Shown here: one piece after another, positions 4,936 to 43,143 of the stretch
Position numbering within the stretch: the first letter of the stretch is position 1
How the letters are laid out: each line of letters begins with the position of its first letter
Position numbers and translations under genes: made by a program
The notes under the pieces: generated by a model
Told to the model about the DNA's origin: nothing
The model's database searches: none
The model's input: only the letters and a program-made list of their open reading frames with translations
DNA from: Candidatus Omnitrophota bacterium
Lineage (GTDB): Bacteria; Omnitrophota; Omnitrophia; Omnitrophales; Aquincolibacteriaceae
NCBI GenBank assembly: GCA_016196545.1
Contig: JACPXM010000020.1
Location: 4,168-68,167, forward strand
DNA length: 64,000 nt
Direction: 5' to 3'

Positions 4936-5148
4936 ATGGAACATCAAAAAATTGAACATCCGAAAAGACCCGAACGCACCCAAATCATGACGCCCAAAGA
5001 AGCAGCCAAGTATCTGGGCTTTCACTTGGTGACGATTTACCGGCTTCTAAAAAAGCACGAAATCCCGGCCACGAAAATCGGCGGACAGTGGCGCTTTAAA
5101 AAGGATGTTTTGGATGCCTGGCTCCTTGACCGGATGAACAAAGAATAA
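4936..5148 (+). CDS. excisionase/MerR-like helix-turn-helix DNA-binding protein
   Basis: MTPKEAAKYLGFHLVTIYRLLKKHEIPATKIGGQWRF is the classic excisionase-family HTH signature. Length 70 aa. Confidence 0.6.
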   Translation: MEHQKIEHPKRPERTQIMTPKEAAKYLGFHLVTIYRLLKKHEIPATKIGGQWRFKKDVLDAWLLDRMNKE

Positions 5149-5249
5149 ATTTTAGAATACCCCACGACAATTCCATCAAACGAAAGACAGGGATAAAAAA
5201 TCCTTTGTCCAGGAGCATTGTGTGCGGGTTATGAATTTAAGAGAACGCC

Positions 5250-5807
5250 ATGATTGAGCTTGCAGACTCTCCTAAGGTGGCGGCTTCCATGTTGGATGAA
5301 GACCATCGCAAATGGCATGAAGCCTATTGGTATGCCCTTTATACTCGAAGCCGTCACGAAAAATTTATCCGTGGAGAACTTGAGAAAAAGGGGATTGAAA
5401 CCTTTCTTCCCCTGAAGCGCGTCACACGCCGGTGGTCCGACCGAAAAAAAGTTATCGAAGAACCCCTTTTTAAGGGATATTTATTCGTCCATACGCCTCT
5501 TATAAACCGAATTTCTATTTTAAATACCAAGGGAGCCGTCCGATTTGTAGGGCCCTCGGTTTCTCCCCTTCAGGTTTCCGAAACAGAACTTGCCTCAATC
5601 CGCCATTTTATGGAAAACGAGCTCCCCATGGACCCTTTCCCTTACCTTAAGGAGGGAGAGCGCGTTTACATTCGCTCCGGACCCATGAAGGGCGTAGAAG
5701 GTTTTATTGTACGTAAAGATAAGCACTGCCGTCTGGTCATTTCACTCGACTTATTAATGCAGTCCGTATCGGTTTTGGTGGATCAAGCCATCGTCGAGAA
5801 GTTATGA
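5250..5807 (+). CDS. NusG-paralog transcription antiterminator (RfaH/UpxY-like) heading the polysaccharide locus
   Basis: NGN domain WYALYTRSRHEKFIRGELEKKGIETFLP...RRWSDR...PLFKGYLFVH. C-terminal KOW motif GERVYIRSGPMKGVEGFIV. Confidence 0.75.
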   Translation: MIELADSPKVAASMLDEDHRKWHEAYWYALYTRSRHEKFIRGELEKKGIETFLPLKRVTRRWSDRKKVIEEPLFKGYLFVHTPLINRISILNTKGAVRFVGPSVSPLQVSETELASIRHFMENELPMDPFPYLKEGERVYIRSGPMKGVEGFIVRKDKHCRLVISLDLLMQSVSVLVDQAIVEKL

Positions 5808-5924
5808 ATAGGTAGGACATAGCGCAGAGCCCAGGCGTAAAAGTTGTGTTATGGATTTTGAAGCTCTGGAGGTTACAGCTTCCTGTGACTGAAGGGGCGA
5901 AGCTATGAAAAGGGGAAATTCAAA

Positions 5925-6899
5925 ATGAGCTATTGGACCTGTAAAAAAGTGCTGGTAACGGGAGGGGCGGGCTTTATCGGTTCCTATTTGGCGGAAGGGC
6001 TTGTCAATGCCGGTGCCGAAGTTACGGTGGCTGACAATCTCAACCGGGGAAGCCGGGAGCGGCTTGAATCTGTGATTTCAAAAATTCAGTTGAGGGAAGT
6101 CGACCTTTTTAATTCCACCCATTGTGACGAAGTCTGCAAAGGCCAGGATATAGTCTTGAACTTGGCGGCCAAGGTGACAGGGATTGAATATAACCGCTTT
6201 CATATGGCGGACATGTTTGAGGCGAATATGAAACTTCAAATCAACATGCTTCATGCCGCAGCCGATGCCGGCGTGAAACGTTTTTTACAAGTCAGTACCG
6301 CGTGCATTTATCCGCACGATGCAAAGGTTCCCACACCGGAATCGGAGGGAGATCGCGGCTCGCCGGAGCCCACCAACGAAGGTTATGGATTTGCTAAATT
6401 AATGGGGGAGAAGCTTGCAAAATATTATACGCGTGAGCGAAAAATTGAGGTGCTCATCGGCCGGCCTTTTAATGCCTATGGGCCTCGGGATCATTTTGAT
6501 GAAGCAACCAGTCATGTCATCCCTGCCATTATGAAGCGTGTTTTAGAGGGCGAGGATCCCGTCGTGATTTGGGGATCCGGCAATCAATCGCGCGTGTTTG
6601 TCCACGCCAAAGACATTGCGCGGGGCATGATGCTTCTTACCGAAAAAGCTCCGGCCGCAACGCCGATCAATATCGGCCATGACCAGGAAGTGGCCATCAA
6701 GGAACTCTTTGAGCTCATTTGCAAAGTGACGGGCAAAAATCCAAGGCCCTATTATGACACCACCAAACCCGACGGCTATCCGCGCCGGGCGGCTGATGTC
6801 AAGCTCCTTCGTAAATACACAGGGTTTGTTCCCTCGATTTCGCTTGAGGACGGCTTAAAAGAGATGTTTGATTATTTTCTTGCCAAGAAAAATTCTTGA
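5925..6899 (+). CDS. NAD-dependent nucleotide-sugar epimerase/dehydratase (SDR family)
   Basis: Rossmann motif VLVTGGAGFIGS. Catalytic YxxxK in YGFAKLMGEK. Length 324 aa. Confidence 0.8.
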   Translation: MSYWTCKKVLVTGGAGFIGSYLAEGLVNAGAEVTVADNLNRGSRERLESVISKIQLREVDLFNSTHCDEVCKGQDIVLNLAAKVTGIEYNRFHMADMFEANMKLQINMLHAAADAGVKRFLQVSTACIYPHDAKVPTPESEGDRGSPEPTNEGYGFAKLMGEKLAKYYTRERKIEVLIGRPFNAYGPRDHFDEATSHVIPAIMKRVLEGEDPVVIWGSGNQSRVFVHAKDIARGMMLLTEKAPAATPINIGHDQEVAIKELFELICKVTGKNPRPYYDTTKPDGYPRRAADVKLLRKYTGFVPSISLEDGLKEMFDYFLAKKNS

Positions 6900-6921
6900 G
6901 GGGGAGTTTAAACTTTAGGTT

Positions 6922-8016
6922 TTGCGAATTTTAGTTCTACTTTCGGATGCCTTTGGCGGATTTGGCGGTATCGCCAAGTTTAATCGAGATTTATTAAAAG
7001 CCCTTTGTTCTTTTTCGGAGGTTGAAGAAGTTGTCGCGATTCCCCGGAAAGCTTCCGAAACGATCGGGGAACTGCCTTCAAAGTTAGTTTATATCACCGA
7101 GGCCCTGAATCATAAAGGGAAGTATCTTCTTACTATTTTTAAAGTCCTATACCGCAAATCCGATTTTGATTTGATCCTTTGCGGGCATATTCATCTTCTT
7201 TTTTTGGCCTTTCTGGTTAAAAGCCTGCTCGGGAAGGGGCAATTAGTCCTTATGGCTCACGGTATCGAAGTTTGGAGGCCGCGGCATTTTTTGACCCGTT
7301 GGGCTGCCGGGCAAGTCAATGTTTTAATTTCAGTCAGCCGGTTTACGGAAAATCAATTTCAAAAATGGGCCTCTCTTCGAAAGGCGCGGCCCTTTCTTCT
7401 TCCGAATAGCGTTGATTTAGATCAGTTTAAACCCGGTGCAAAAAGAAGTGACTTAATGAACCGATACGGTCTTGAGGGAAAAAAAATTATCATGACGCTC
7501 GCCAGGCTTAACGCATCCGAGCGCTACAAAGGAATTGATGAAGTCCTCGAAGCACTGCCCGCACTGATTTCAGAAATCCCGGATATTCTCTATCTGATCG
7601 TGGGAGACGGTACGGACCGCAAGCGTTTTGAGCGGAAAGTCCAAAGTTTGAATTTAAACAAGCAGGTTATTTTTGCGGGCCAGATTTCAGAAGCAGAAAA
7701 AGTGGATTATTATCGATTGGCCGATGTCTTTGTCATGCCAGGCCGCGGGGAGGGATTCGGGATTGTTTATTTGGAAGCCCTTGCCTCGGGCATTCCCGTC
7801 ATCGGGAGCAAACGGGATGCCAGCCGGGAAACTTTGTGCGAGGGGGAACTGGGAATTTTAGTGGACCCGGATAATCCCAAGGAAATTCAATCCGCAATCA
7901 AAGAAGCTTTCAACAAACCCAGAAACGATGTTTCCCAAAAACTTCGCATTTTCTCAACGGATCATTTCAACGAAAGCCTTCATCAAATCCTGAATGAGGT
8001 CGCAGGGCGCAACTGA
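6922..8016 (+). CDS. glycosyltransferase, GT4-like (GT-B)
   Basis: C-terminal EGFGIVYLEALASGIPVIGS, the E-X7-E region. TTG start. Confidence 0.75.
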   Translation: MRILVLLSDAFGGFGGIAKFNRDLLKALCSFSEVEEVVAIPRKASETIGELPSKLVYITEALNHKGKYLLTIFKVLYRKSDFDLILCGHIHLLFLAFLVKSLLGKGQLVLMAHGIEVWRPRHFLTRWAAGQVNVLISVSRFTENQFQKWASLRKARPFLLPNSVDLDQFKPGAKRSDLMNRYGLEGKKIIMTLARLNASERYKGIDEVLEALPALISEIPDILYLIVGDGTDRKRFERKVQSLNLNKQVIFAGQISEAEKVDYYRLADVFVMPGRGEGFGIVYLEALASGIPVIGSKRDASRETLCEGELGILVDPDNPKEIQSAIKEAFNKPRNDVSQKLRIFSTDHFNESLHQILNEVAGRN

Positions 8017-8611
8017 TTTGAAGACGCCGGGGATTACCGCATTTCACACGCTCCTCTATTTTTTAAAGATCCATGAAGCCCATACTCAAACCACCCAAAA
8101 AGAGCGGGAAGCCTTATCGAAATATTCTTCAGGGAAGAAAAAGGCCGTCGAAATTGGTGTTTATGAAGGAGTTAATACGCGAATCATTGCGCAGCATTTA
8201 GATTCTCAAGGAGTTTTATATGCAGTCGACCCTTTTTTCCGCGGAAGAATCGGGATTTGTTGGAATGAATTTATTGCGCGAGGAGAAATTCGCCGGGGAA
8301 AAGTTAAAAACGTGGTTCAATTTGTTCATGCGACAAGCCATGAAGCGACTCAAACACTAAAAGGTCAATTCGATTTTATTTTTATAGATGCGGATCATTC
8401 TTATGAAGGAATCAAGTCTGATTGGGAAGATTGGTCCCCACGAATCGAAAAAGAGGGGATTATCGCATTGCATGATACTCAAGTTCCCGACCATGACGCT
8501 AGTATTGCTCAACTGGGCTCTTACCGATTTTTTCAGGAGCATATTCGACAGGATGCGCGATTCGAAATCCTGAAACAGACGGACTCTTTGAGTATTTTAA
8601 AGCGAAAATAA
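7994..8611 (+). CDS. class I SAM-dependent methyltransferase (TylF/CmcI-like O-methyltransferase fold)
   Basis: EIGVYEGVNT...FIFIDADHSYEGIKSDWEDW matches the sugar O-methyltransferase family. Confidence 0.65.
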   Translation: MRSQGATDLKTPGITAFHTLLYFLKIHEAHTQTTQKEREALSKYSSGKKKAVEIGVYEGVNTRIIAQHLDSQGVLYAVDPFFRGRIGICWNEFIARGEIRRGKVKNVVQFVHATSHEATQTLKGQFDFIFIDADHSYEGIKSDWEDWSPRIEKEGIIALHDTQVPDHDASIAQLGSYRFFQEHIRQDARFEILKQTDSLSILKRK

Positions 8612-8613
8612 AA

Positions 8614-9642
8614 TTGCTTCATATCGCCATCACCGCAGATCCTGAGCTTCCTATCCCGCCAAAGTTGTATGGAGGGATCGAACGTGTGATCGCCATTATG
8701 ATTCCCGAACTCCTAAAAAGGGGACATCAAGTCACCTTATTTGCTCATCCGAATTCAAAAATAGCCTGCAATTTGATTCCCTATTCCGGGAAAAGCAGCG
8801 TTTCCCTCGTCGATACTTGGAAGAATATGCAATGTATCAAAAAAGCCTATTTCGCCAAAAAATTTGATGTCCTTCATAGTTTTGGCCGGCTGGCTTATCT
8901 TTTACCACTCTTATCGAAGCCCTTTCCTAAAATTATGACGTATCAAAGAAAAATTAGTCCGAGGTCAATTCTTTGGGGAAGTCGATTGTCGCGTGGCAGC
9001 CTTCATTTTACCGCAATTAGTCATCATATGGTGGAGCCGGTAAAAAAATTATCGGATTGGAAAGTGATTTACAACGCCGTTGATATCAGAACTTTTCAAT
9101 TTCAAGCTCAGGTGGATTCGCAGGCCCCCTTAATCTTTTTAGGACGCGTGGAGGAAATCAAAGGCCCCCATCTCGCCATTGAAGTGGCACAAAAAAGCGG
9201 CCGCCGGCTCCTCATCGCAGGCAATATCCCTCAAGGAAGCAAGCATCAAAACTATTTTGAAACCCGTATCAAACCTCATCTTATGCCCCGTTTTATTGAC
9301 TATATCGGTCCCGTGGAGGATGCCCAAAAAAATGAGTTGTTGAGGCAGGCCGCTGCACTCCTGATGCCTATTTTGTGGGAGGAGCCCTTTGGAATTGTGA
9401 TGGCGGAAGCGCTTGCATGCGGTACGCCGGTGATTGGGCTGCGTCAAGGCTCGGTTCCGGAAGTCATCTTGCAGGGACAAAATGGATTTGTTTGTGACAG
9501 CGTGGGTGAAATGATTGTGGCGGTGGCAAAGATAGGCCAGATTTCACGCGCAAAATGCCGCGAGGACGCGGAGAAAAGATTCAGTCATTCGGTTTTAGTC
9601 GATCAATATGAAAATTTGTATCAAAGCGCTTTAAAAAAATGA
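8614..9642 (+). CDS. glycosyltransferase, GT4-like
   Basis: LHIAITADPELPIPPKLYGGIERV and EEPFGIVMAEALACGTPVIG. TTG start; an in-frame ATA two codons upstream would give MKLLHIA. Confidence 0.75.
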   Translation: MLHIAITADPELPIPPKLYGGIERVIAIMIPELLKRGHQVTLFAHPNSKIACNLIPYSGKSSVSLVDTWKNMQCIKKAYFAKKFDVLHSFGRLAYLLPLLSKPFPKIMTYQRKISPRSILWGSRLSRGSLHFTAISHHMVEPVKKLSDWKVIYNAVDIRTFQFQAQVDSQAPLIFLGRVEEIKGPHLAIEVAQKSGRRLLIAGNIPQGSKHQNYFETRIKPHLMPRFIDYIGPVEDAQKNELLRQAAALLMPILWEEPFGIVMAEALACGTPVIGLRQGSVPEVILQGQNGFVCDSVGEMIVAVAKIGQISRAKCREDAEKRFSHSVLVDQYENLYQSALKK

Positions 9643-10415
9643 ATCCGTCAACTTCCTCAATATCGGAACAACCGCTCATGGGCTCCCTGCGATTAAGGAG
9701 ATTCAAACAACGGATGGGTAAAATCCTTATTCCGAGCCTGCCGATTTGCCGGGCCACCTTCAATCAATTGAGAACGGAGCTGGTTGCCTTCGGGGTGCGG
9801 CTTTCTTGCCGCATCAATCCCTGGAAAATTTATAAAATTAAAATGCTGCAAAAAGCCAACGATTTATCAGTCAACATTGGCTGCGGTCCTTTTGGGGAGA
9901 CCGGGTGGATTAATTTGGATATTATTAAGGCCCCGAATTTATGGAAGCGCTTCGACGTCCGCAAGTCGCTGCCCCTAAGAGAAAATTCAGCGCTGCGCAT
10001 AAGATGTGAGCATTTTCTTGAGCATCTGGATTTTCATGACGAGGTGCCCCATTTTTTAAGGCATTGTTTACGCTGCCTAAAAAAAGGAGGAATTTTAAGA
10101 ATCGTGGTCCCGGATATTCCGAAGTATTTAGCCGCCTATCAATCGGGAAATAAGAATGAATGGAAGCGTTTGGGATGGGATTTGGACCATATGCCTGAGG
10201 GTTTTGAAACCCAAATGGACATCCTGAATCACGTTTTTCGGCAAAACGGCGAGCATCGGTATGCCTATGATTACCGCACCTTGGCCCGCTTGCTTCAAAA
10301 AGTCGGCTTTTCTGAAGTGAGGCAGATGCGCTTTGGCCTATCCTCGGATGAGGCGCTTCAAGGCGACTTAGAAAATCACAAAAATTATTCCCTCTATTTG
10401 GAAGCGGTTAAATGA
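9639..10415 (+). CDS. class I SAM-dependent methyltransferase
   Basis: SAM motif I VNIGCGPFGETGWINLD and motif II-like LKKGGILRIVVPD. ATGA overlap with the upstream gene. Confidence 0.65.
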   Translation: MNPSTSSISEQPLMGSLRLRRFKQRMGKILIPSLPICRATFNQLRTELVAFGVRLSCRINPWKIYKIKMLQKANDLSVNIGCGPFGETGWINLDIIKAPNLWKRFDVRKSLPLRENSALRIRCEHFLEHLDFHDEVPHFLRHCLRCLKKGGILRIVVPDIPKYLAAYQSGNKNEWKRLGWDLDHMPEGFETQMDILNHVFRQNGEHRYAYDYRTLARLLQKVGFSEVRQMRFGLSSDEALQGDLENHKNYSLYLEAVK

Positions 10416-11674
10416 TGAGGAATGACCCGTCTCAAAAAACGGTTTGCATTCTGACAACCGGTCAGCCCTCCACAAATCCTCGAGTTGTAAAGGAAGCGGA
10501 CGCGCTCTCGGAGGCCGGTTATCGCGTGATGGTGATTGCGTCTTTCTGGGCGGATTGGGCCTCTTCGTTTGATCCCCAATTAATGTCCAGCCGAAAATGG
10601 CAATGCCAAATGGTGGGCGGAAGCCCTACCTCAGAACCCTGGATTTATTTTTGGAGTCGCCTTCGCTTTAAAGTTGCTCGTCTCTTTGCCCCTATTTGGC
10701 CAAAAGGCATGAATCAAAGACCCGAAATCGCGATTTCAAGAACCTCCGAGGAACTCCGAAAAGCAGCTGAGTCGATTCCCGCGGATTTGTATATTGCCCA
10801 TTATCCCGCCGCACTTCCCGCAGCCTTTTTTGCGGCAAAAAAGTATCGGGCAAAGTTAGGTTTTGATGCCGAAGATTTTCACAGCGGAGAGTTTAATCCC
10901 AAAGAGGATCAACCCCTTCATGGGCTTATCAGCGATCTCGAACAAAAATACATTCCAAGGTGTGATCACTTCACGGTAGCAAGCCCTTTAATCGGAAAGG
11001 CCTACAAGCCCATTTGGAATGGGAAAAGTCCTTTGACGATTCTTAATGTATTCCCAAAAAATTTGCGTCCCCCAAAACTTTCCATGAATTCCTCCGGCGA
11101 GGCCTTGAAACTTTTTTGGTTTTCACAGTCCATCGGAGAGAGGAGGGGGATTGAAGATGTGATCGAAGCTATGGGAAAGTTAACCAAAGAACAAATAGAA
11201 TTCCATCTTTTGGGGAGAATACTTCCGGATTATAAAGCGCGGCTGGATTCCCTCATCTCCCAGAAAGGGTTGAGATCCTCCCAAGTGGTTTTTCATAAAC
11301 CCCTTCCGCCCGAGGAATTGGTCCGTTATTCGGCGCAATTTGACATTGGCGTATCCCTCGAGCAGCCCATTAATCTTCATAAAAAGTATTGTTTAAGCAA
11401 CAAATTATTTACCTATCTCTTAGCGGGGAATGCGCTTATCTTGACAAACTTGGAGGGGCAAAGAATGATTGCCGAGGAACTCAAAGACGCCTGCCTGGAA
11501 TACTCGCCCGGAGATATTGCACAACTTGCCTCAGGGCTATCCCATTGGATCCAGGATAGAGATTCTCTGCTTCGAAGCCGTCAAAGGTCCTGGGAATTAG
11601 GAGAAAACAAATACAACTGGGATCTTGAGAAAGAAAAATTCGTAGAAAGCATTCATCATTTATTTGGTCATTAA
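10412..11674 (+). CDS. glycosyltransferase (GT-B, GT4-like)
   Basis: Length 420 aa. N-terminus VCILTTGQPSTNPRV. Donor-binding domain in the C-terminal half. Translationally coupled to the upstream gene. Confidence 0.65.
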   Translation: MMRNDPSQKTVCILTTGQPSTNPRVVKEADALSEAGYRVMVIASFWADWASSFDPQLMSSRKWQCQMVGGSPTSEPWIYFWSRLRFKVARLFAPIWPKGMNQRPEIAISRTSEELRKAAESIPADLYIAHYPAALPAAFFAAKKYRAKLGFDAEDFHSGEFNPKEDQPLHGLISDLEQKYIPRCDHFTVASPLIGKAYKPIWNGKSPLTILNVFPKNLRPPKLSMNSSGEALKLFWFSQSIGERRGIEDVIEAMGKLTKEQIEFHLLGRILPDYKARLDSLISQKGLRSSQVVFHKPLPPEELVRYSAQFDIGVSLEQPINLHKKYCLSNKLFTYLLAGNALILTNLEGQRMIAEELKDACLEYSPGDIAQLASGLSHWIQDRDSLLRSRQRSWELGENKYNWDLEKEKFVESIHHLFGH

Positions 11675-11698
11675 TCTTATAAATTCAAAAGCCCAGCG

Positions 11699-12718: not shown

Positions 12719-13434
12719 TGAAACACCTTAAAAATTTATTGCCTCATTCGTTTAAAAGAAAATTATGGAGGCAGCGTCAAAATTGGAAGGTCTCTCCCGC
12801 AAATTGGGAATTATTGAGAAGATTATCTCCGCTGAGCCCTCATTATGGTGTGGAAAGAGGGCAGCCCATTGATCGCTATTATATAGAAAATTTTTTAGCG
12901 AAATATTCCGCCGATATCAAAGGCCGTGTTCTTGAGATTCAATCTTCAGGCTATACCCGGCAATTTGGAAAAGGCAGGGTGAATCAATCGGATGTTTTGG
13001 ATATCGATTCGGCCAATCCCCAAGCGAGCTTGGTTGTGGATTTAAGCAAAGCCGACGGGATTCCTTCCGGCCAATTTGATTGTTTTATATTAACGCAATC
13101 CCTTCAATATATGTTTGATCTGAAATCGGCGCTTGGGCATGCTTTCCGGATTTTAAAACCCGAAGGCGTTTTGCTGGTGAGCGTCCCCGCCATTGCGCGA
13201 ATCGACCCGGGCGCCCGGGCAACAGATTATTGGAGATTTACACCCATGGGTTTATGCAAACTAATGGAAGAACACACCCAACCTCAAAATATTGAAATCA
13301 CCGTCCATGGAAATGTGCTGTCTGATTTTGGATTCTTGATGGGTTTGTCTCATCATGAGTTGTCGGAGCGAGAATTAAATACCACCGATACGGATTTTCC
13401 TCTTGTCCTTTGCGCCCGAGCGGTTAAATCATGA
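12715..13434 (+). CDS. class I SAM-dependent methyltransferase
   Basis: Motifs VLEIQSSGY, then ILKPEGVLLVSVP. The ATGATGA start overlaps the upstream stop codon. Confidence 0.6.
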   Translation: MMKHLKNLLPHSFKRKLWRQRQNWKVSPANWELLRRLSPLSPHYGVERGQPIDRYYIENFLAKYSADIKGRVLEIQSSGYTRQFGKGRVNQSDVLDIDSANPQASLVVDLSKADGIPSGQFDCFILTQSLQYMFDLKSALGHAFRILKPEGVLLVSVPAIARIDPGARATDYWRFTPMGLCKLMEEHTQPQNIEITVHGNVLSDFGFLMGLSHHELSERELNTTDTDFPLVLCARAVKS

Positions 13435-14583: not shown

Positions 14584-14679
14584 GGAATGAGGACTTAAAA
14601 CCCCATCGTTAAACCTCTTAAAATCATTTTAGGCGCGGGATGGTATTTTCCTCAAAGTACCGGAGGGATAGAAGTCTAT

Positions 14680-22926: not shown

Positions 22927-22965
22927 AAGCAATCCATAATATTTTAAGTTCACTTTGAGGCGAAT

Positions 22966-31309: not shown

Positions 31310-31324
31310 AAGTGAGGAGCTTTG

Positions 31325-34840: not shown

Positions 34841-34841
34841 C

Positions 34842-35850: not shown

Positions 35851-36822
35851 ATGGTCAATCCCAAATCGATTTGTGAAAAGCTCGACCGAAGGCTTTCAGC
35901 CGTCTTAGGATCACGCATTGTCATTTTAAATTATCATCATGTCCTCGCCTCCCGTCAGGATTTATTCAATATCTGTGTCGCGCCCAAAAATTTTGAGGCC
36001 CATTTGGAATTCCTCAAGCGCCGGTATCGGGTCTTGGGTCTTTCGGAACTATTGGGTCTTTTGAAAATAGGCAAAATTCCCCACAGGGCCGTAGTCCTGA
36101 CTTTCGACGACGGATATTCAGATAACTATTTGAACGCGGTGCCTCTTTTAGAAAAATATCGAATGCCCGCAACTTTTTTTGTGACCACACAACATCTAGA
36201 TACCCTTGAGGAATTTTGGTGGGATGGGATTCAAAGACTGGCTTTGTCCCTCAAAAAATTTCCGGAAAAGGTTCATCTTGAAATTTCCGGTGAGGATTGT
36301 GAATTGGCATTGGGGTCATCTCCCGAACCGACATTGAGATTATTATCCCAAAAAATGTATTCGCTGGAGGAGGAAAGCCGGAGGCGTCTTCTCCAGGAAC
36401 TATTTCGAAAATGTGGCGTTCGGGACGAGCCCCGAGCTGAGTACCGGTGTTTTTCGTCAGAAGAGCTCTTTTTGATTTCTAAAAATCCCCTTTTTGAAAT
36501 GGGTGCCCATACGGTTTCACACCGGTCCCTTAAATCGCTCCCCCTTGAAACCCAGAGGATGGAAATTTTGGCGAGCAAGAAATGCTTAGAAGAAATCATT
36601 CAAAAGACAATCCGGCATTTTGCGTATCCCTTTGGAACGCCGGAGCATTACACGCCTGAAACACAACGGTTAGTTCAAGCATGTGGATTTAAAAGCGCCT
36701 GCACGGTGGGATCTAGCGCGGTGAATCCTGACAGCCCTTTATTTGGTCTCTGCCGACTGGCGGTTGGAGATGGCCCAGCGACTTCATTTTCACAAAAGCT
36801 TGCGGAGTGTTTTCATTCTTAA
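35851..36822 (+). CDS. polysaccharide deacetylase (CE4/NodB domain)
   Basis: LTFDDGYSDNY and the later GAHTVSH. The ATG at 35851 follows the upstream stop codon by one nucleotide. Confidence 0.75.
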   Translation: MVNPKSICEKLDRRLSAVLGSRIVILNYHHVLASRQDLFNICVAPKNFEAHLEFLKRRYRVLGLSELLGLLKIGKIPHRAVVLTFDDGYSDNYLNAVPLLEKYRMPATFFVTTQHLDTLEEFWWDGIQRLALSLKKFPEKVHLEISGEDCELALGSSPEPTLRLLSQKMYSLEEESRRRLLQELFRKCGVRDEPRAEYRCFSSEELFLISKNPLFEMGAHTVSHRSLKSLPLETQRMEILASKKCLEEIIQKTIRHFAYPFGTPEHYTPETQRLVQACGFKSACTVGSSAVNPDSPLFGLCRLAVGDGPATSFSQKLAECFHS

Positions 36823-36829: not shown

Positions 36830-38008
36830 ATGAAGCAAAAACTCAAATTGCATTCTCTCGCTATTTTCTGTGCTTCGCTTGTTATGTCTTCGGCCTTGGC
36901 CTGGCCCTTTTTGCCGGCGGTGAGGAATAAGCAATACGCCGTCTTTCCTCCAAAGTGGCGGGAAGTCTTAAAGCCAGATCCAAAAATTTTGTCCGGAATC
37001 GAGGGTGAATCCAGATTCAGCACGAACCGTTTGGGACTGCGGGGCGATGAACTTGGCGATCCAAAGATTAGAATTCTTGTTCTGGGAGGATCTGCGACAG
37101 AGTGCGGGTACTTGGATGATTCGGAGACCTGGCCTTATTTGATTCAAAAACAGCTTTCAAATTCACTCGCTGAAACCGTATGGGTAGGAAATGCCGGAAG
37201 GTCAGGGCATCATTCCTTGCATCACCTCGCACAGATGGAAATATTACTCGATCAAATCAAGCCCATCCATTTGGTAATTGTCATGATGGGATTCAATGAT
37301 ATGGCCGCTTGGCTCCGTCGCAAAGAGGATACCTTTGAAACTTGGCAGGATGCTGCCGTCCGCGAGAAATATACGCGCTCGGCCTTCTCCCGCGCCCCCG
37401 TAAAAGGGTTTAAAAATCAGCTTCGTCAAAGCCTTCACTCCCTTCGTAATTTTTTTAACGGAAAGGATCATTGGCATTCGGAAGAAATTCGTACCGGAAG
37501 TCAATATCGAGGCCTTCGAGAAAGAAGAATGAAAAGCGATCAAATTCTAATTCCGGAAGAAAAACTGGCAACGCTACCCTTCGCCTTAAAGAGGTATCAA
37601 CAAAACATTGAACAAATAATTCAAATTGCGAAAAATCATCAGACCCCATTGCTTTTTTTGACCCAACCCGGACTTTATCATGAATCGATGTCGCCTGAAG
37701 AGACGGCGCTTTTATGGTTTGGTGCCATTCAAGGAACCGAGGATATCAGGGCCCCTGCCGCAAATTATGCCCGAGTGGAGGAAATGAGAAGCGTTTTGAG
37801 CGATTATAACCAGATCCTCCTCAAAACGGCTGGGATGCATTCGATTGAAACATTGGATTTAGACCGGCTTTTACCCGCAAGCACCGAGATTTTTTATGAC
37901 GATGTTCATTTTCATGAAGCCGGGGCCGCAAGGGTTGCCCAACTCGTGGTTCAATCTTTATGTGACTCCAGGATTCTGAGTATGCCTTGCCGGAGAGAGG
38001 TCGCATGA
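36830..38008 (+). CDS. SGNH/GDSL-family hydrolase or acyltransferase, secreted or membrane-anchored
   Basis: Signal-peptide-like N-terminus. Block I ILVLGGSATECG; the later VMMGFNDM block resembles block III. Confidence 0.55.
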   Translation: MKQKLKLHSLAIFCASLVMSSALAWPFLPAVRNKQYAVFPPKWREVLKPDPKILSGIEGESRFSTNRLGLRGDELGDPKIRILVLGGSATECGYLDDSETWPYLIQKQLSNSLAETVWVGNAGRSGHHSLHHLAQMEILLDQIKPIHLVIVMMGFNDMAAWLRRKEDTFETWQDAAVREKYTRSAFSRAPVKGFKNQLRQSLHSLRNFFNGKDHWHSEEIRTGSQYRGLRERRMKSDQILIPEEKLATLPFALKRYQQNIEQIIQIAKNHQTPLLFLTQPGLYHESMSPEETALLWFGAIQGTEDIRAPAANYARVEEMRSVLSDYNQILLKTAGMHSIETLDLDRLLPASTEIFYDDVHFHEAGAARVAQLVVQSLCDSRILSMPCRREVA

Positions 38009-38841
38009 TGGAGAAACCTCCTTTAGTGAGTGTTATTGTTCCGACCTATAATCGTCCGGCCATGCTTCAGGAAGCGCTTCAAAGTGTCTTGAATCAGACC
38101 TATAAAAATATTGAAGTCCTTGTCGTCAATGACGGCGGTAGGGATGTGGAAAAAGACATTGCTTCTTTGGGATTCAAAGAACGTCTGATTTATATCCGCC
38201 ACCCTGAACACAAAGAAAGGTCTCGGGCAAGGAATACGGCGATAAAGGCTTCCCAGGGCAAATACATTGCGTATCTCGATGACGATGACATTTATTATCC
38301 CGATCATTTAGAAACCTTGGTGAATTTTCTCGAAACTCATCCTTATGCCATCGCTTATACGGATGCTTATCACGCCTTTCAAAAGAAAAAAAATGAACAA
38401 TATGTTACCGTGTCAAAAAAAATATTATTTTCTTATGATTTTAACCGGGATGAGTTAATGATAAAAAATCTCATTCCCATCCTTTGCCTCATGCATCAAA
38501 AAGAATGCCTCGAAAAAGCCGGCGGTTTTGATGAAACGCTCACAACCCACGAAGACTGGGATTTGTGGATTCGTCTTTCCAGGCACTTTGATTTTGCGCA
38601 CATTAAAGAATTCACATGCGAAGTTCGTTGTCATGACGGCACGACCACGGCCCAGCAAAAGGCCGATTTTTTACGTACGAAGATGCTTATTTATGAGAAA
38701 TACAAAAAATATGTCGAAGGAAAACCCGGCATTCTAAAAAGACAAAGCGAAGATTTAAAACAATACGGCTCCTTTTGTGAAGCATTCGAAGCGGCCGTGA
38801 AAAAATTAGGGAGATTATTTCATGATCATCCTCGGAATTAA
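38005..38841 (+). CDS. glycosyltransferase family 2
   Basis: VSVIVPTYNRPAMLQEALQSVLNQTYKNIEVLVVNDGG and the DXD motif YLDDDD. Confidence 0.8.
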   Translation: MMEKPPLVSVIVPTYNRPAMLQEALQSVLNQTYKNIEVLVVNDGGRDVEKDIASLGFKERLIYIRHPEHKERSRARNTAIKASQGKYIAYLDDDDIYYPDHLETLVNFLETHPYAIAYTDAYHAFQKKKNEQYVTVSKKILFSYDFNRDELMIKNLIPILCLMHQKECLEKAGGFDETLTTHEDWDLWIRLSRHFDFAHIKEFTCEVRCHDGTTTAQQKADFLRTKMLIYEKYKKYVEGKPGILKRQSEDLKQYGSFCEAFEAAVKKLGRLFHDHPRN

Positions 38842-40597
38842 CGCCTATCATCCGGATGCATCGGTAGCGCTCCTGCGAGACGGAGAGCTCCTCTGGGCCG
38901 CAGAGGAGGAGCGTTTCAACCGGGTCAAACACGCCTCCGGATTTCCGCACCTTGCCTTGAAACACTGTCTTGAGGAGACCGGAATTCCGGCCACGGCGAT
39001 TGATGTGGTGGCTGTTTCAAAAAATCCTCACGCGAATTTCATGAAGAAGGTTCAATTTGTATTGAAATACAGACCCGCCAAAAAATTAATCCTCGACCGT
39101 ATCTTGGCGTTTCGAAAATTTTCACATTTGGATGAAGATTTTTATCGCGACCTCCACACCACTCCAGGATTTCTCAAAGCCAAATTTATGTACGTGGAGC
39201 ATCACCAGTCGCATATTGCTTCGAGTTATTATTTTTCGGGATTTGAGCGGGCCGCCTTTCTCTCCTTGGACGGTATGGGGGATTTTTCATCCGCCATGTG
39301 GGGCCTGGCTGAGGAAGGACACTTGCGGGTGATAGACCGTGTCTTTTTTCCGCACTCCGCAGGATTTCTTTATACGGCCGCAACGCAATTTCTCGGGTTT
39401 CATAAATTTGGCGATGAGTATAAAGTCATGGGACTTGCCGGTTACGGCCAGCCCAAATATTTAGATCTCCTCCGTCATGTTTATCACCTCAAGCGAAACG
39501 GAGGCTTTGAACTGAATCTTCGCTATTTCCTGCATCAGGAGGGTGCCGCCAAAATACGCTGGAAGGGAGGTGCGCCGGAACAGGATATCCTTTTTTCGCG
39601 ACACTGGGAAGAAAAGCTCGGGCGTCCACGCTTGCCGGATGAAGCGATCACACAGCGGGACAAAGATATTGCCGCCTCGTTACAAGCCGCTTTAGAAGAA
39701 ATTTATTTTCATGTGCTAAGAAATCTTTTTCAAAAGACAGAGGAGAGCCGCCTTTGTCTGGCGGGAGGGTGCGCTTTTAATAGTGTCGCCAATGGCAAAA
39801 TTACAAAGGCCACGGGATTTCGCGAGATCTACATTCAGCCCGCCGCAGGAGATGCCGGAACCGCGGTGGGAGCCGCAGCCTTTATTTCTTACGCTGTGTT
39901 CAAAGAGCCAAAACGTACCGTCATGAATCATGCCCACTTTGGAAGCAGCTTTGAAGAGAGGACCCTTGAATCGTGCATTCAATTAAAATTAAAAGAGCTG
40001 GAAAAGGAGCAAGACGGGAACTCAAAGTTCTTTAGGGCTCATTTTTCTGAGGACGAATTAATTGCGAAAACCGTTGAGGCGCTTTCCGAAGGCAAAGTCG
40101 TGGGCTGGTTTCAGGGAAAAATGGAGTTTGGCCCACGCTCCCTTGGCGCACGAAGCATTCTTGCCGATCCCCGCAACCTGGACATGAAAGATATTCTCAA
40201 TCGTCGCATCAAACACCGCGAAACGTTCCGTCCTTTTGCCCCCTCCGTTCCCGAGGAACGGGCCGGCGAATTCTTTGAGATGGACTGCAAGTCATCCCCG
40301 TTTATGTTGAAGGTTTTTCCGGTAAGGCCCGAAAAAAGGTCTGTCCTCCCGGCCGTGACTCATGTGGACGGTAGCGCACGCGTTCAAACAGTTTCTAAAG
40401 AGGTCAATCCGCTTTACTGGAAACTTCTTGAGGCCTTTGGGAAAAAGACCGGTGTCCCGGTTCTCTTAAATACCTCTTTTAACGAACATGAACCCATTGT
40501 GTGCACTCCTGAAGAAGCCATAGACTGTTTCGTGAAGACCCCTATGGATGTGCTCGTTATGGGAAACTATTTTCTTGAAAAAAAGATTCAAGACTAA
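38822..40597 (+). CDS. carbamoyltransferase (NodU/CmcH family)
   Basis: N-terminal Kae1/YgjD-like LGINAYHPDASVALL...AAEEERFNRVKH and a C-terminal carbamoyltransferase domain. Length 591 aa. Confidence 0.8.
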   Translation: MIILGINAYHPDASVALLRDGELLWAAEEERFNRVKHASGFPHLALKHCLEETGIPATAIDVVAVSKNPHANFMKKVQFVLKYRPAKKLILDRILAFRKFSHLDEDFYRDLHTTPGFLKAKFMYVEHHQSHIASSYYFSGFERAAFLSLDGMGDFSSAMWGLAEEGHLRVIDRVFFPHSAGFLYTAATQFLGFHKFGDEYKVMGLAGYGQPKYLDLLRHVYHLKRNGGFELNLRYFLHQEGAAKIRWKGGAPEQDILFSRHWEEKLGRPRLPDEAITQRDKDIAASLQAALEEIYFHVLRNLFQKTEESRLCLAGGCAFNSVANGKITKATGFREIYIQPAAGDAGTAVGAAAFISYAVFKEPKRTVMNHAHFGSSFEERTLESCIQLKLKELEKEQDGNSKFFRAHFSEDELIAKTVEALSEGKVVGWFQGKMEFGPRSLGARSILADPRNLDMKDILNRRIKHRETFRPFAPSVPEERAGEFFEMDCKSSPFMLKVFPVRPEKRSVLPAVTHVDGSARVQTVSKEVNPLYWKLLEAFGKKTGVPVLLNTSFNEHEPIVCTPEEAIDCFVKTPMDVLVMGNYFLEKKIQD

Positions 40598-40603
40598 AGA
40601 CAC

Positions 40604-41815
40604 TTGAAACTTCTTCTGATTAATCAAGTTTTTTGGCCGGATGTAGCGGCGACCGCGCAGCATCTTACGGACCTTGCCTGTGAACTCATAAATCAGGGCC
40701 ATGAAGTGACAGTCCTTTGCGCCCGCCGTGGATATACGGAGCCGCATTCTATATTTGCCAAAAAAGAAATTTACCAAGGGATTCACATTGTTCGAGTGTG
40801 GCCCTTCTCTTTGGGCAGAAAATATAAAATTCTTAGAGTTTTAGATTCCCTTATTTTAAATTTTGCGTTTGCGCTGCGACTTGCGAGGCTGGGACATTTT
40901 GAGCGTATCCTTGTTCTTACGTCGCCTCCGCTCGTGGGTGGGGTGGCCGGTTTTTTTGCCAAGCTTTGGAGAAAACCTCTTATTTTGTGGATGATGGATG
41001 TGAATCCCGATGAGGCCATTGAGGCGGGTTGGATTCGACGAAACTCCTTGGAAGCTCACATGCTGGAGTCCGCGCTTCGATGGGTATTAAATCAAAGCCA
41101 AAAAATCATCGTGCTGGACCGCTTTATGCGGGACCGCATCCTTCTTAAAGGCGCCGATCCGAACAAAGTAAAAGTCATCGCGCCCTGGTCTCATGATGAA
41201 GCGATTCAACTTATTCCTCATCGTGATAATCCGTTTCGAAAAAAAAATAATCTTGATGGAAAATTCGTCGTTATGTATTCAGGTAATCTCAGCATTTGCC
41301 ATCCCCTGAACACGCTTTTGGAGGCTGCGTTTTTGCTCAAAGAGGAGCCTACGATTTCCTTTGTTTTCATCGGAGGCGGCCAGCGCACCCAAGATATCCT
41401 TCAGGCCCGCAAAGAGCGCTCTTTATCGAATGTTTTTTATTTTCCTTATCAACCCCGGACAGAGATCAAATATTCTCTTTCGGCAGCCGATCTTCATACC
41501 GTGGTGATGGGGGAACCTTATGTGGGGATTGTTCACCCCTGCAAAATTTACGGAATTTTAAGGCTTGGCCGGCCTTTCATTTACATCGGCCCTCAACAAA
41601 GCGCCCCCGGAGAATTGATGGAGGCCCTAAAGACGGGCGCTCGCGTCGATCACGGAGAAGCGGAAAGGCTTGCGGGGCTCATCCTTAAAATGAAAAATTT
41701 GAGCGAAGCTGAAAAAATGGAAATCCAAAAAATAAATCAGGCACTCGCGCAGCAGTTTTCCGGTCATGAAATTTGCGCCGGGCTCGCGCGCGAAATAACA
41801 GGGAAATTAAATTGA
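40604..41815 (+). CDS. glycosyltransferase, GT4-like (WcaI-like)
   Basis: LLLINQVFWPDVAATAQHLTDLACEL is a GT4 N-terminus. TTG start. Confidence 0.7.
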   Translation: MKLLLINQVFWPDVAATAQHLTDLACELINQGHEVTVLCARRGYTEPHSIFAKKEIYQGIHIVRVWPFSLGRKYKILRVLDSLILNFAFALRLARLGHFERILVLTSPPLVGGVAGFFAKLWRKPLILWMMDVNPDEAIEAGWIRRNSLEAHMLESALRWVLNQSQKIIVLDRFMRDRILLKGADPNKVKVIAPWSHDEAIQLIPHRDNPFRKKNNLDGKFVVMYSGNLSICHPLNTLLEAAFLLKEEPTISFVFIGGGQRTQDILQARKERSLSNVFYFPYQPRTEIKYSLSAADLHTVVMGEPYVGIVHPCKIYGILRLGRPFIYIGPQQSAPGELMEALKTGARVDHGEAERLAGLILKMKNLSEAEKMEIQKINQALAQQFSGHEICAGLAREITGKLN

Positions 41816-41817
41816 GG

Positions 41818-43143
41818 ATGATCTCTCAGCGAAGTTTCTTTCTTCTGAGCTGCGATTTATTGTCGCTTGCGATTGCCTATGTCTTTGGTTTCGGCATGCG
41901 CACGGGATTTAACGAATACGCGCTTTCACGGCTGAGCTTTCTTTATTTTTCTTTTATCGTCTTTCCCATTCTCTTTTACACGTTTGACCTTTACTATCCC
42001 TACAAGCATTTTGGCGGCATGCAAACGTTCATTGACGTCGTGCTGGCCGTTGTGACCGGGATTATCCTTTCTGCCGCCGCGGCCTATGCCGACCGTTCCC
42101 TTATTCTGCCCCGGCTTATCTTTTTCTATACCATGATTTCTCTCATTCCCACGATTTACGCGGCCCGACTTTTTTATGATTTTCTTTTTGGCTCAAGACT
42201 CCTCGATAAAAAAGTCATTGTCATTGGAACCGGTCCGCTGGCGCTGGAAATCGTGCGCACCATTCGTGCGACCCCTCATTCGGGAATGGATATTGTCGGC
42301 CTTGTCAGCACAAAAAAAGTGCCCTCGGAAAAAAAGCACGGAATTCCGATCACGGGTTCCCTCAAGGACCTGATCACTTTGATTGACTGGTACAACATTC
42401 AGCTTGTGGTGATGGCGCTGGAGGCCGGAGAAGACCATTCCGAGACTCATGTGATGGCAGACCTGCTGATGCACCGGGTCCAAGTCGTGAGCTCTATCCA
42501 TTTATTTGAGCGGCTGACGCAGGAAATTCCCTATAAGCTATTGGGGCCTCAATACCTTCTCGGATTAATGTCCCAAGTCAAAATTAGGCCTTATCTGAAA
42601 ATGAAGCGGGTTCTTGATCTCATCACGGCCTCTTTATTATTGATCTTTCTTTTGCCTGTTTTTATGTTCGCGTTGTTTTTTCTTTCGATCACGGCGCGCG
42701 GAAAAATATTTTTTTATCAGGACCGCATTGGAAAAGACAGCATCCCCTTCCGTCTCTATAAATTGAGGACGATGGCAGAGTCCCAAAAGGGGCATCTTTA
42801 CATCACGCGTTTCGGAGGATTCCTCAGGAAATTCCGGATCGACGAAATTCCTCAGCTATGGAATGTGATCAAAGGGGATATGAGCCTGATCGGCCCGCGG
42901 CCGGAAATCCCTTATTTTGTGACCCGCTGCCGCAAGCGCATTCCTTTTTATGACGCTGTCTTTGCCGTCAAACCCGGCCTTACGGGATGGGCTCAGGTGA
43001 AATTCCGTTACACGGTATCCGCCAAGGATTATGAGCAGAAATTTCGATACAACTTGTACTATTTAAAAAATATTTCCTTTGCGCTGGATCTTTTGATTGT
43101 TTTGAAGACGATTCGCGTGGTGTCGCTGGGGAGAGGAAAATAA
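41818..43143 (+). CDS. polyprenyl-phosphate sugar-phosphate transferase (WbaP/EpsL-type initiating transferase)
   Basis: KRVLDLITASLLLIFLLPVF...YKLRTM...DEIPQLWNVIKGDMSLIGPRPE is the bacterial sugar transferase domain. Confidence 0.85.
   Translation: MISQRSFFLLSCDLLSLAIAYVFGFGMRTGFNEYALSRLSFLYFSFIVFPILFYTFDLYYPYKHFGGMQTFIDVVLAVVTGIILSAAAAYADRSLILPRLIFFYTMISLIPTIYAARLFYDFLFGSRLLDKKVIVIGTGPLALEIVRTIRATPHSGMDIVGLVSTKKVPSEKKHGIPITGSLKDLITLIDWYNIQLVVMALEAGEDHSETHVMADLLMHRVQVVSSIHLFERLTQEIPYKLLGPQYLLGLMSQVKIRPYLKMKRVLDLITASLLLIFLLPVFMFALFFLSITARGKIFFYQDRIGKDSIPFRLYKLRTMAESQKGHLYITRFGGFLRKFRIDEIPQLWNVIKGDMSLIGPRPEIPYFVTRCRKRIPFYDAVFAVKPGLTGWAQVKFRYTVSAKDYEQKFRYNLYYLKNISFALDLLIVLKTIRVVSLGRGK

Follow-up and report, generated by a model that had tools for sequence, protein, structure and literature searches.

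Which glycan does a long one-strand array of carbohydrate genes in a Candidatus Omnitrophota bacterium make, and how does that glycan leave the cytoplasm? The array occupies positions 4936–43143 of a stretch of 64,000 nucleotides (the window; NCBI GenBank assembly GCA_016196545.1, contig JACPXM010000020.1, positions 4,168 to 68,167 of the forward strand), and an original prediction from the sequence alone had assigned to it a single methylated, sulfated, and carbamoylated polymer with a hybrid export logic. Our analysis indicates that the array most likely makes a methylated, sulfated, and carbamoylated surface glycan. The best reading of its gene content, for which we see about an even chance, is a Wzy-type pathway with an ATP-binding cassette (ABC) transporter as the flippase, combined with a mobile sulfation cassette.

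The enzymes of the array were identified by hidden Markov model (HMM) scans with Pfam and NCBIfam, which covered every open reading frame (ORF) of the locus and most, not all, of the larger flanking ORFs in the window. The scans confirmed the originally predicted enzyme inventory almost item by item. Eight GT4 glycosyltransferases (ORFs 3, 5, 7, 12, 14, 15 with a double domain, 18, and 34) and three GT2 enzymes (ORFs 22, 26, and 32) bring these two families to a total of around 11, and they are accompanied by five S-adenosylmethionine (SAM) methyltransferases (ORFs 4, 6, 9, 11, and 13) and two CE4 deacetylases (ORFs 8 and 30). Both deacetylases are devoid of signal peptides and transmembrane (TM) segments and are thus cytoplasmic. 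The only membrane proteins of the locus are encoded by ORFs 16, 17, 20, 31, and 35, four of which (16, 17, 20, and 35) are polytopic. No family match was obtained in Pfam or NCBIfam for ORF10, ORF27, and the N-terminal half of ORF23. The biosynthetic genes are listed below, with the related contigs L012, L014, and L016 and modules A and B described in the comparison that follows.

5925–6899, + strand: ORF2, extended short-chain dehydrogenase/reductase-type epimerase/reductase; best match of the GDP-L-fucose synthase type, below the equivalog cutoff
6922–20286, + strand: ORFs 3–15, core of module A, from HMM families and synteny with L016
20273–21724, + strand: ORF16, polytopic membrane protein of the Wzy polymerase type
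21718–22926, + strand: ORF17, GT-C membrane glycosyltransferase (GT87/DUF2029-like; PF09594 45 bits, cutoff 25) with TM segments
22966–24138, + strand: ORF18, GT4, from HMM
24117–24944, + strand: ORF19, DUF5672 protein, from HMM
24941–26764, + strand: ORF20, B-family ABC (ABCB) half-transporter with transmembrane domain (TMD) and nucleotide-binding domain (NBD), HepA/MsbA-like, from HMM
26748–27569, + strand: ORF21, second DUF5672 protein, from HMM
27566–28480, + strand: ORF22, GT2-like (Glyco_tranf_2_4), from HMM
28491–30311, + strand: ORF23, 606 residues, with a GT-B-like domain at the C-terminus that bears a PHP motif (H463-P464); opening gene of module B
30269–32338, + strand: ORF24 and ORF25, tandem paralogous PAPS-type sulfotransferases (Sulfotransfer_3)
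32348–33322, + strand: ORF26, soluble GT2, from HMM; orthologues in L012 and L014 at 38–39% identity
33325–33774, + strand: ORF27, around 150 residues, no family; its place directly upstream of ORF28 is conserved in L012 and L014
33740–34840, + strand: ORF28, GT-B-like member of the UDP-GlcNAc 2-epimerase superfamily that bears a PHP motif (H246-P247)
34830–35849, + strand: ORF29, GNAT acyltransferase (Acetyltransf_9), start refined by homologue alignment
35851–36822, + strand: ORF30, cytoplasmic CE4, start refined; last of the genes that the array has in common with L012 and L014
36830–38008, + strand: ORF31, SGNH/GDSL hydrolase or acyltransferase with an N-terminal membrane anchor
38005–38841, + strand: ORF32, GT2, from HMM
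38822–40597, + strand: ORF33, NodU/CmcH-family O-carbamoyltransferase (Carbam_trans_C 244 bits, Carbam_trans_N 206 bits)
40604–41815, + strand: ORF34, GT4, from HMM
41818–43143, + strand: ORF35, polytopic polyprenyl-phosphate phosphoglycosyl transferase (WbaP/WcaJ type); last gene

The predicted sulfation and carbamoylation are backed by strong HMM matches, and neither enzyme class was reassigned to an unrelated family. ORF24 and ORF25, which share 53% identity, score 89.5 bits (E 5e-25) and 79.7 bits (E 5e-22) on Sulfotransfer_3 (gathering score 27). The two motifs that bind 3'-phosphoadenosine-5'-phosphosulfate (PAPS), namely the 5'-PSB (RSGTSL) and the 3'-PB (RDPR...S), are conserved, with R-S-G-T and R-D-P-R...S invariant across four homologues. 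ORF33 possesses the two-domain architecture of Carbam_trans_N and Carbam_trans_C and misses the NodU equivalog cutoff (160 of 1000 bits). The tailoring enzymes that depend on SAM, PAPS, or carbamoyl phosphate/ATP are all soluble, with neither TM nor signal segments. More speculatively, the adjacency of the cytoplasmic CE4, GNAT, and sulfotransferase genes, which is conserved between loci, may point to de-N-acetylation of an amino sugar, followed by N-acylation or N-sulfation. An exact-sequence look-up retrieved no match for the carbamoyltransferase and a single 1.8-kb Logan contig for GcvT, which is encoded beside the array. Elsewhere in the window, an inositol-monophosphatase-family gene (220 bits) lies at 55543–56334 on the − strand; this family includes CysQ, a 3'-phosphoadenosine-5'-phosphatase that would recycle the sulfotransferase by-product 3'-phosphoadenosine-5'-phosphate.

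Priming and polymerization are represented by one candidate gene each. ORF35 scores 185.6 bits on Bac_transf and 313 bits on TIGR03025, above the cutoff of 295.55, and as the last gene of the array it bears out the initiating polyprenyl-phosphate transferase that had been placed at the distal end. ORF16 contains at least eight hydrophobic segments and matches the 'oligosaccharide repeat unit polymerase' model TIGR04370 weakly (E 1.6e-6, below cutoff). A full HMMER scan gathered an ORF16 family of 1828 representatives, 701 of them at E ≤ 1e-30, and among 33 sampled members seven matched O-ag_pol_Wzy, four matched O_anti_polymase, and none matched the ligase model Wzy_C. The AlphaFold model of ORF16 built on the family alignment is confident (pLDDT 91.6, pTM 0.90). 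Three lines of evidence, weak but concordant and all short of curated thresholds, thereby agree with the earlier proposal of a Wzy-type polymerase of a lipid-linked glycan. An ORF16-profile search of the related contigs L012 and L014–L017 detected no ORF16-like gene. The neighboring GT-C protein, ORF17, presumably acts on the periplasmic face. Sequence searches of the Protein Data Bank (PDB) using phmmer with ORFs 16, 17, 19, 23, and 28 gave nothing significant.

For translocation, ORF20 combines an N-terminal TMD (ABC_membrane, 77 bits) with a C-terminal NBD (ABC_tran, 114 bits) and is thus a half-transporter. It misses all the equivalog cutoffs of the characterized exporters, with 478 of 725 bits for HepA, 373 of 602 for MsbA, and 198 of 1000 for PglK; in the PDB its best half-transporter match is MsbA (261 bits), and PglK falls outside the top 60. 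No Wzx/MOP/Polysacc_synt/MurJ-type protein was found among the locus ORFs or the other window ORFs scanned. ORF20 is a candidate flippase or exporter of the lipid-linked glycan. Of the original 'MsbA/PglK-type exporter replacing Wzx', the B-family ABC protein and the missing Wzx stand, and the PglK likeness does not (198 bits, against 478 for HepA as the nearest and 373 for MsbA). The reported absence of Wza/Wzb/Wzc, KpsMT, KpsDE, and oligosaccharyltransferase genes also held, with no Wza/Poly_export, Wzz/Wzc, KpsD/E, or oligosaccharyltransferase domain among the window ORFs scanned and no ABC-2 transporter (KpsM/T or Wzm/Wzt) in the locus. The two DUF5672 paralogues, ORF19 and ORF21 (55% identity), bracket the exporter gene; for this uncharacterised family, neither a sequence relative in the PDB nor useful literature was found. 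Downstream of the array, a gliding-type system (48633–53301), composed of a GldA-like ABC ATPase, an 841-residue fused GldF-GldG-like permease/accessory protein, and a DUF4340 protein, contains the only ABC-2-type transporter in the window and is not obviously linked to the locus.

Comparison with related genomes revealed how the array is put together. ORF23, ORF28, and ORF20 are 100% identical to NCBI proteins of a Candidatus Omnitrophica bacterium metagenome-assembled genome (MAG; HYZ85_01345, HYZ85_01370), and a scan of GTDB representative genomes with ORF20 returned no close relative, the best match reaching 45% over the NBD only. The two homologues of ORF28 pointed to two loci, L012 and L014. 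L012 is a 94.8-kb Logan contig (SRR13608701_921) of which 21 kb was read. It carries an array at the same chromosomal site, with TrmJ, the phosphoribosyltransferase (74%), the 161-residue − strand ORF (65%), the HTH_17 gene, and the NusG paralogue (59% identity) in common. After this antiterminator, however, the contig continues with Wzm and Wzt (ABC2_membrane and ABC_tran/Wzt_C domains), a sulfotransferase, and a 2OG-Fe oxygenase, followed by a full-length ORF23 orthologue (31%), a further sulfotransferase (34%), orthologues of ORF27 and ORF28 (39%), of ORF29 (GNAT), ORF30 (CE4), and ORF26 (GT2, 38%), and a penicillin-amidase-like gene; a 440-nt gap then separates this block from further GT4/GT2 genes. 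The same cassette occurs in L014 (NCBI GCA_964427885.1). Since ORFs 23–30 recur in both contigs, we regard them as a conserved unit, module B, the sulfation cassette. The 2OG-Fe(II) oxygenase (5807–6640) and the penicillin-amidase-family N-terminal nucleophile (Ntn) hydrolase (14284–16452) of L012 have no counterpart in the window and hint at further tailoring variants of the cassette.

A different block surrounds the exporter. Homologues of ORF20 form a clade at 40–48% identity whose named sources are mostly Omnitrophota/Omnitrophica, many being without a name, and the next tier consists of cyanobacterial HepA-type proteins at 33–35%. Every neighborhood of these homologues is a long glycan locus on one strand, with GT4, methyltransferase, and CE4 genes in abundance. 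In the Omnitrophota contig L016 (around 21 kb read), the ABC gene is surrounded by orthologues of ORFs 3, 5 (50% identity), 7, 8, 9, 12, 14, and 15, a synteny by which module A (ORFs 3–15 plus the ABC gene) can be delimited at the sequence level. A sulfotransferase gene comes after that of the nearest ORF20 homologue (48% identity). In L066, source-named Omnitrophota, the ABC gene (P0007, 45%) directly follows genes for Poly_export, Wzz/GNVR/AAA_31, a Wzy_C-TPR protein, and an epimerase, and no MOP/Wzx flippase occurs within the 19 kb read. JGI metagenome contigs gave nothing when scanned with the ORF28 family; with the sulfotransferase family they yielded 41 loci, all at ≤27% identity and none with module B partners. 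These observations show the window locus to be a mosaic whose modules have separate histories. Modules A and B are found apart from each other in related genomes, and the site downstream of trmJ therefore resembles a hypervariable surface-antigen locus in its behavior. An ABCB exporter in the place of Wzx recurs in these Omnitrophota-type loci and is no one-off hybrid. The 'hybrid logic' thus loses its standing as a peculiarity, homologous exporters being present in the glycan loci of several Omnitrophota-type contigs and in one case beside Wza/Wzc/Wzy_C-type genes, and the idea of one dedicated polymer is weakened by the presence of its cassettes, apart from one another, in other contigs.

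The two HP-motif GT-B proteins noted at the outset are both there, with a single PHP motif in each of ORF23 and ORF28. The C-terminal domain of ORF23 and ORF28 are distant paralogues (22% identity, E 4e-8), and the two proteins match TIGR04396, a 'surface carbohydrate biosynthesis protein' model, weakly with 51 and 34 bits respectively (cutoff 125). Their proposed resemblance to KpsC/KpsS was not borne out as stated, failing for ORF28 and being ambiguous for ORF23. The ORF28 orthologue P0004 reaches 42.7 bits on Epimerase_2, above the Pfam gathering score, the best PDB match of the ORF28 family profile is a UDP-GlcNAc 2-epimerase (E 0.006), and no Capsule_synth (PF05159) signal was detected in ORF28 or its orthologues. 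An AlphaFold2 model of ORF28 from a three-sequence alignment is poor (pLDDT 57.8, with the C-terminal domain bearing the HP motif below 50); the top Foldseek matches of this low-confidence model are all UDP-GlcNAc 2-epimerases at a TM score of around 0.35 and are supportive only. ORF28 therefore looks like a GT-B protein of the UDP-GlcNAc 2-epimerase type and is KpsS-like by no test applied. ORF23 shows no match to PF05159 even at E ≤ 10 and hits only Glyphos_transf (E 0.0026). Its L012 orthologue is the sole source of a Capsule_synth match (24.4 bits, E 2e-5), alongside Glyphos_transf (22.5 bits) and Epimerase_2 (19 bits) over the same stretch of around 80 residues around the HP motif. The ORF23 profile against KpsC in the PDB is non-significant (E 0.5), and the match to the BFO_1060 family is weak (42 bits, cutoff 200). 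ORF23 is best described as an ambiguous HP-motif GT-B protein, possibly KpsC/S-, TagF-, or TIGR04396-like. The HP motif marks enzymes that use CMP- or CDP-activated donors; the locus encodes no pathway for such a donor, and CMP-Kdo from lipopolysaccharide (LPS) synthesis would be an economical guess for ORF23. In a word-indexed homologue search, ORF23 found itself only and ORF28 just two relatives.

The layout of the array was analysed after gene starts had been refined through homologue alignment and ribosome-binding sites. Between 4936 and 43143 the ORF listing contains 36 co-directional + strand genes, in line with the approximately 35 tightly packed genes first counted: a 70-residue HTH_17 gene, the NusG paralogue, and 34 more. 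The − strand ORFs in this interval are all short and nested inside + strand genes. On the low-coordinate side the array is flanked by trmJ, a phosphoribosyltransferase gene, and a 161-residue − strand ORF, and on the high-coordinate side by the convergent gcvT and mutY genes on the − strand from 43170. Overlaps were found at 20 of the 35 junctions (8 of them ATGA), 11 are gaps of 0–25 nt, and only four gaps exceed 25 nt (101, 117, 96, and 39 nt). The 96 nt before ORF12 are no true gap, since they encode, in frame, the first beta-strand of a GT4 fold. The long overlaps of ORF29/30 (263 nt) and ORF28/29 (125 nt) were rejected as artefacts of longest-ORF starts because the upstream extension of ORF30 is unconserved and, in L012, interrupted by a stop codon. 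Terminator-like hairpins show no excess over shuffles (24 versus 28±5; 29 versus 31±6) and none lies in an intergenic gap of the array; internal terminators, which the original prediction had named as a possible objection, were thus not found. Promoter-like sites across the array occur at chance-level frequency. From the packing alone, the array would form one long transcription unit. Rfam and tRNA scans of the 64-kb window produced no matches.

Three irregularities lie within module A and around the exporter. The N-terminal beta-strand of ORF12 (…LKIILGAGWYFPQSTGGIEVY) lies in frame upstream of GTG 14680, the first canonical start (window 14584–14680); the interval from the stop at 14596 to 14680 offers ATC/ATT codons only, and an ATG at 14587 leads after two codons to TAA. 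The gene may use a non-canonical start, carry a point lesion or be a pseudogene, or the assembly may be in error here. ORF10, without a family, and the methyltransferase ORF11 overlap by 131 nt (window 13873–14003), and a later ORF11 start would cost the SAM-binding motif, so that the junction is either a true long overlap or a frameshift dividing one gene. The GC content drops to 41–43% over ORFs 16–19 (window 20001–26000; Wzy-type, GT-C, GT4, and DUF5672 genes) from 45–50% elsewhere; such a drop commonly marks the part of a surface-glycan locus that varies most and is exchanged laterally.

The head of the array carries the regulatory features, namely:

4849–4877, + strand: promoter-like site upstream of the first gene (TTGACA-17-TACTAT), with a −35 block conserved in the syntenic L012
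4936–5148, + strand: HTH_17 (excisionase-type) DNA-binding protein of 70 residues, first gene, from a domain match
5250–5807, + strand: ORF1, NusG paralogue, transcription antiterminator of the UpxY family (NF033644, 134.5 bits, cutoff 100)
5883–5904, + strand: 22-nt leader motif CTGTGACTGAAGGGGCGAAGCT, in the 117-nt gap between the antiterminator gene and the first biosynthetic gene

The NF033644 score upholds the proposed NusG/UpxY-like antiterminator at the head of the locus. ORF1 sits at the 5' end of the polysaccharide array, after the HTH_17 gene, and stays under the cutoffs of the RfaH and LoaP models (78 bits). An HTH_17 gene also precedes the NusG paralogue in L012 and the ABC exporter gene in L017. 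The leader motif has a single copy in the window and appears in 0 of 100 shuffles. In L012 it is present twice, at 2717–2735 after the NusG paralogue and at 16770–16788 in the internal 440-nt gap; it is thus kept despite different downstream genes, and the second copy lies where the second gene block begins. In two of the three copies the motif is the 3' arm of a 7–8-bp hairpin, and RNA folding of the motif regions is not significant (z −1.8, +0.3, and −1.5). Six exact matches among viral contigs were judged compatible with chance given the size of the collection. The motif may be an ops-like recruitment or leader element for the antiterminator, a candidacy drawn from its sequence and position.

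Taken together, these features can be arranged into a pathway, in which we infer the substrate, the step order, flipping by the ABC protein, and the single product from what was observed directly, namely the enzyme families, gene packing, synteny, and mosaicism. The UpxY-type factor made from the head of the array would keep the long transcript processive. ORF35 would prime polyprenyl phosphate, and the soluble GT4 and GT2 enzymes would assemble a large lipid-linked oligosaccharide on the cytoplasmic face. Because the cofactor-dependent tailoring enzymes lack TM and signal segments, their steps are placed on this face as well; they would comprise O-methylation by five enzymes, carbamoylation by ORF33, CE4 de-N-acetylation with GNAT re-acylation, and PAPS-dependent sulfation by ORF24 and ORF25. 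ORF20 would then translocate the unit, a role that normally falls to a Wzx flippase. There are precedents for ABC proteins in this role, since PglK can take over from Wzx in the O-antigen synthesis of E. coli and the flippase of H. pylori, Wzk, is itself an ABC protein. At the outer face, ORF16 would polymerise the units, ORF17 would add side residues, and the anchored ORF31 would modify the chain further. The outer-membrane export and chain-length proteins of the Wza/Wzc type would be encoded elsewhere in the genome, for which synechan, with an outer-membrane polysaccharide export (OPX) gene remote from its sulfated-exopolysaccharide cluster, provides a precedent (PMC8205485).

Several observations weigh against this pathway. 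In L012, module B stands directly behind Wzm/Wzt and ahead of an internal gap with its own copy of the leader motif, which suggests that the cassette can yield a self-contained glycan, exported through ABC-2, and is not bound to decorate the product of module A. No ORF16-like gene lies beside the ABC homologues in L015–L017. ORF20, below every equivalog cutoff, could instead be a lipid A-core flippase or an exporter of complete chains, the single transcript is deduced from gene packing only, and neither Wza/Wzc nor PAPS-synthesis genes were seen in the 64-kb window. The first of these points leads to a possible, though doubtful, explanation in which the array makes two glycans. ORFs 2–22 and 33–35 would direct a methylated and carbamoylated heteropolysaccharide linked to undecaprenyl diphosphate (Und-PP) through the ABC flippase and Wzy, and ORFs 23–30/32 a separate sulfated amino-sugar polymer; the latter would be built by GT2 and the two HP-motif GT-B proteins, possibly on a group-2-like glycolipid anchor, and exported by ORF20 or by an ABC-2 transporter encoded elsewhere. 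This explanation accounts for module B without module A in L012 and L014 (around 21 kb of L012 read), for its place in L012 after Wzm/Wzt and before a gap with a second motif copy, and for module A without module B within ±10 kb in L016. It also gains from the ORF23 orthologue, which reaches the gathering score with 24.4 bits on Capsule_synth and 22.5 bits on Glyphos_transf, both families that act on glycolipid-anchored polymers (PMC11666461). On the other side, the window contains no Wzm/Wzt, and the ORF22–ORF23 gap measures 10 nt with neither a promoter nor a copy of the leader motif. ORF23 itself lacks a Capsule_synth match, ORF28 is epimerase-like, and the absence of the other module from L012 and L016 refers to the around 21 kb read of each.

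The array could instead specify an LPS outer core or O-antigen of the Helicobacter type, with the full chain built on Und-PP in the cytoplasm, flipped by the MsbA/Wzk-like ORF20, and joined to lipid A-core by ORF16 as a ligase. We consider this unlikely. The MsbA match in the PDB (261 bits), the GT9 (heptosyltransferase-family) genes adjoining the ABC homologues in L015 and L017, and the ligase-type Wzy_C genes in L017 and L066 speak for it, and carbamoylated LPS has a precedent in the P. aeruginosa core with its 7-O-carbamoyl-heptose. However, neither ORF16 nor the 33 sampled members of its family match Wzy_C, the Wzy polymerase models being matched instead, and GT9 and Kdo-transferase genes are not in the window locus. 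Very improbable, in our estimate, is protein glycosylation, in which a large non-repeating oligosaccharide would be flipped by a PglK-like ABC protein and transferred to proteins. Many single-copy glycosyltransferases, an ABC protein for Wzx, and extensive methylation would fit such a system, and the Campylobacter pgl and Bacteroidota/Tannerella O-glycan loci have a similar make-up; ORF23 also weakly matches the BFO_1060 family (42 bits, cutoff 200). Yet the window ORFs scanned yielded no oligosaccharyltransferase domain, whether PglB/STT3, PglL/Wzy_C, or another, and the PglK match is poor (198 bits against a cutoff of 1000). The Wzy-type pathway with an ABC flippase and a sulfation cassette therefore stays our preferred reading.

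Comparison with described systems places the locus among known glycan pathways. The proven sulfated exopolysaccharide synechan (xss) of Synechocystis PCC 6803 shares with it two sulfotransferases, a priming glycosyltransferase, Wzy, and a remote OPX protein, with around eight glycosyltransferases including the priming one, and differs in having a Wzx flippase, a polysaccharide co-polymerase, and its own regulators (PMC8205485). The ABCB exporter, the carbamoyltransferase, the methyltransferase set, the CE4/GNAT pair, and the NusG-type antiterminator of the window locus are in turn missing from xss. A predicted sulfated-glycosaminoglycan cluster of Pontiella sulfatireligans F21 (Kiritimatiellae, like the Omnitrophota of the Planctomycetes–Verrucomicrobia–Chlamydiae group) resembles the array in a PF13469 sulfotransferase, GT2/GT4 enzymes, a methyltransferase, and a GT-C-like protein (PMC7356697), and the exopolysaccharide of this organism was measured as mostly N-sulfated (PMC7356697). 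The cluster is drawn starting next to trmJ (PMC7356697, Fig. 5), and the window locus lies just downstream of trmJ (2692–3582); the adjacency may reflect a shared insertion site or coincidence. Compared by description, the Pontiella cluster differs by a transaminase, GtrA, an undecaprenyl-phosphate mannosyltransferase, and TuaB, and the ABCB exporter, carbamoyltransferase, and ORF23/28-type proteins are unreported there. The group 2 capsules of E. coli and Neisseria (KpsMT-KpsDE, KpsC/KpsS, and transition transferases; PMC11666461) are echoed in L012, which pairs an ABC-2 transporter (Wzm/Wzt-like) with module B, whereas the window locus has neither a Wzm/Wzt-type ABC-2 transporter nor KpsD/E, and no CMP-Kdo-specific features were shown.

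The exporter and the tailoring set have their own nearest counterparts. The heterocyst envelope polysaccharide genes of Anabaena/Nostoc also include a B-family ABC exporter, HepA, within a polysaccharide locus; HepA gives the best NCBIfam match of ORF20 (478 bits), and HepC-type phosphoglycosyl transferases weakly match ORF35, but ORF20 stays under the equivalog cutoff of 725, the identity is 33–35%, and the cell biology is another. PglK of C. jejuni and Wzk of H. pylori are half-size ABCB exporters that replace Wzx for Und-PP-linked glycans. They serve as a mechanistic model for ORF20, with the differences that their systems have no Wzy polymerase and that the similarity of ORF20 to PglK is low. 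In Bacteroides capsule loci, a UpxY-family gene likewise leads a long one-strand polysaccharide operon, in a different phylum and with Wzx/Wzy; here an extra HTH_17 gene lies upstream and no UpxZ-like inhibitor was identified. Rhizobial Nod factors are GlcNAc-based glycans tailored in the cytoplasm by NodH (sulfation), NodS (methylation), NodU (carbamoylation), and the CE4 enzyme NodB. The tailoring chemistries are the same, including CE4 action followed by re-acylation, whereas the Nod products are small lipochitooligosaccharides exported by NodIJ. Every enzyme family of the array has been described before, and MAGs commonly contain large glycan loci with heavy tailoring; the functions are all predicted and, as far as sequence can tell, offer no evidence for a new principle. 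None of the nearest described systems, however, combines an ABCB exporter, a Wzy-type polymerase, a sulfation cassette, a carbamoyltransferase, and five methyltransferases.

The literature searched contained no paper linking Omnitrophota with sulfotransferases or comparable loci. This phylum consists of uncultured bacteria, often of very small size and perhaps dependent on hosts, about whose surface chemistry almost nothing is known. Few sulfated polysaccharides of bacteria have a defined genetic basis; synechan is a proven case and the Pontiella product a predicted one. A more far-reaching proposal, which we regard as rather improbable, is that the Omnitrophota lineage as a whole replaced Wzx by a dedicated HepA/MsbA-like ABCB clade within Wza/Wzc/Wzy-type pathways and, in addition, carries a compact, horizontally shuffled cassette (ORF23-/ORF28-type GT-B, GT2, cytoplasmic CE4, GNAT, and tandem sulfotransferases) for a heparan-sulfate-like, de-N-acetylated and N- and/or O-sulfated amino-sugar glycan with ABC-2 or ABCB export. 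If true, the shuffled cassette would be a bacterial analogue of the animal N-deacetylase/N-sulfotransferase logic. If the predictions on the present locus hold, it would provide a compact and seemingly portable cassette for sulfation that is attractive for the engineering of sulfated glycans, a candidate cis element of a UpxY-type antiterminator outside Bacteroidota, and a natural series of Wzy-type pathways with an ABC protein for Wzx, which would be useful for understanding flippase choice.

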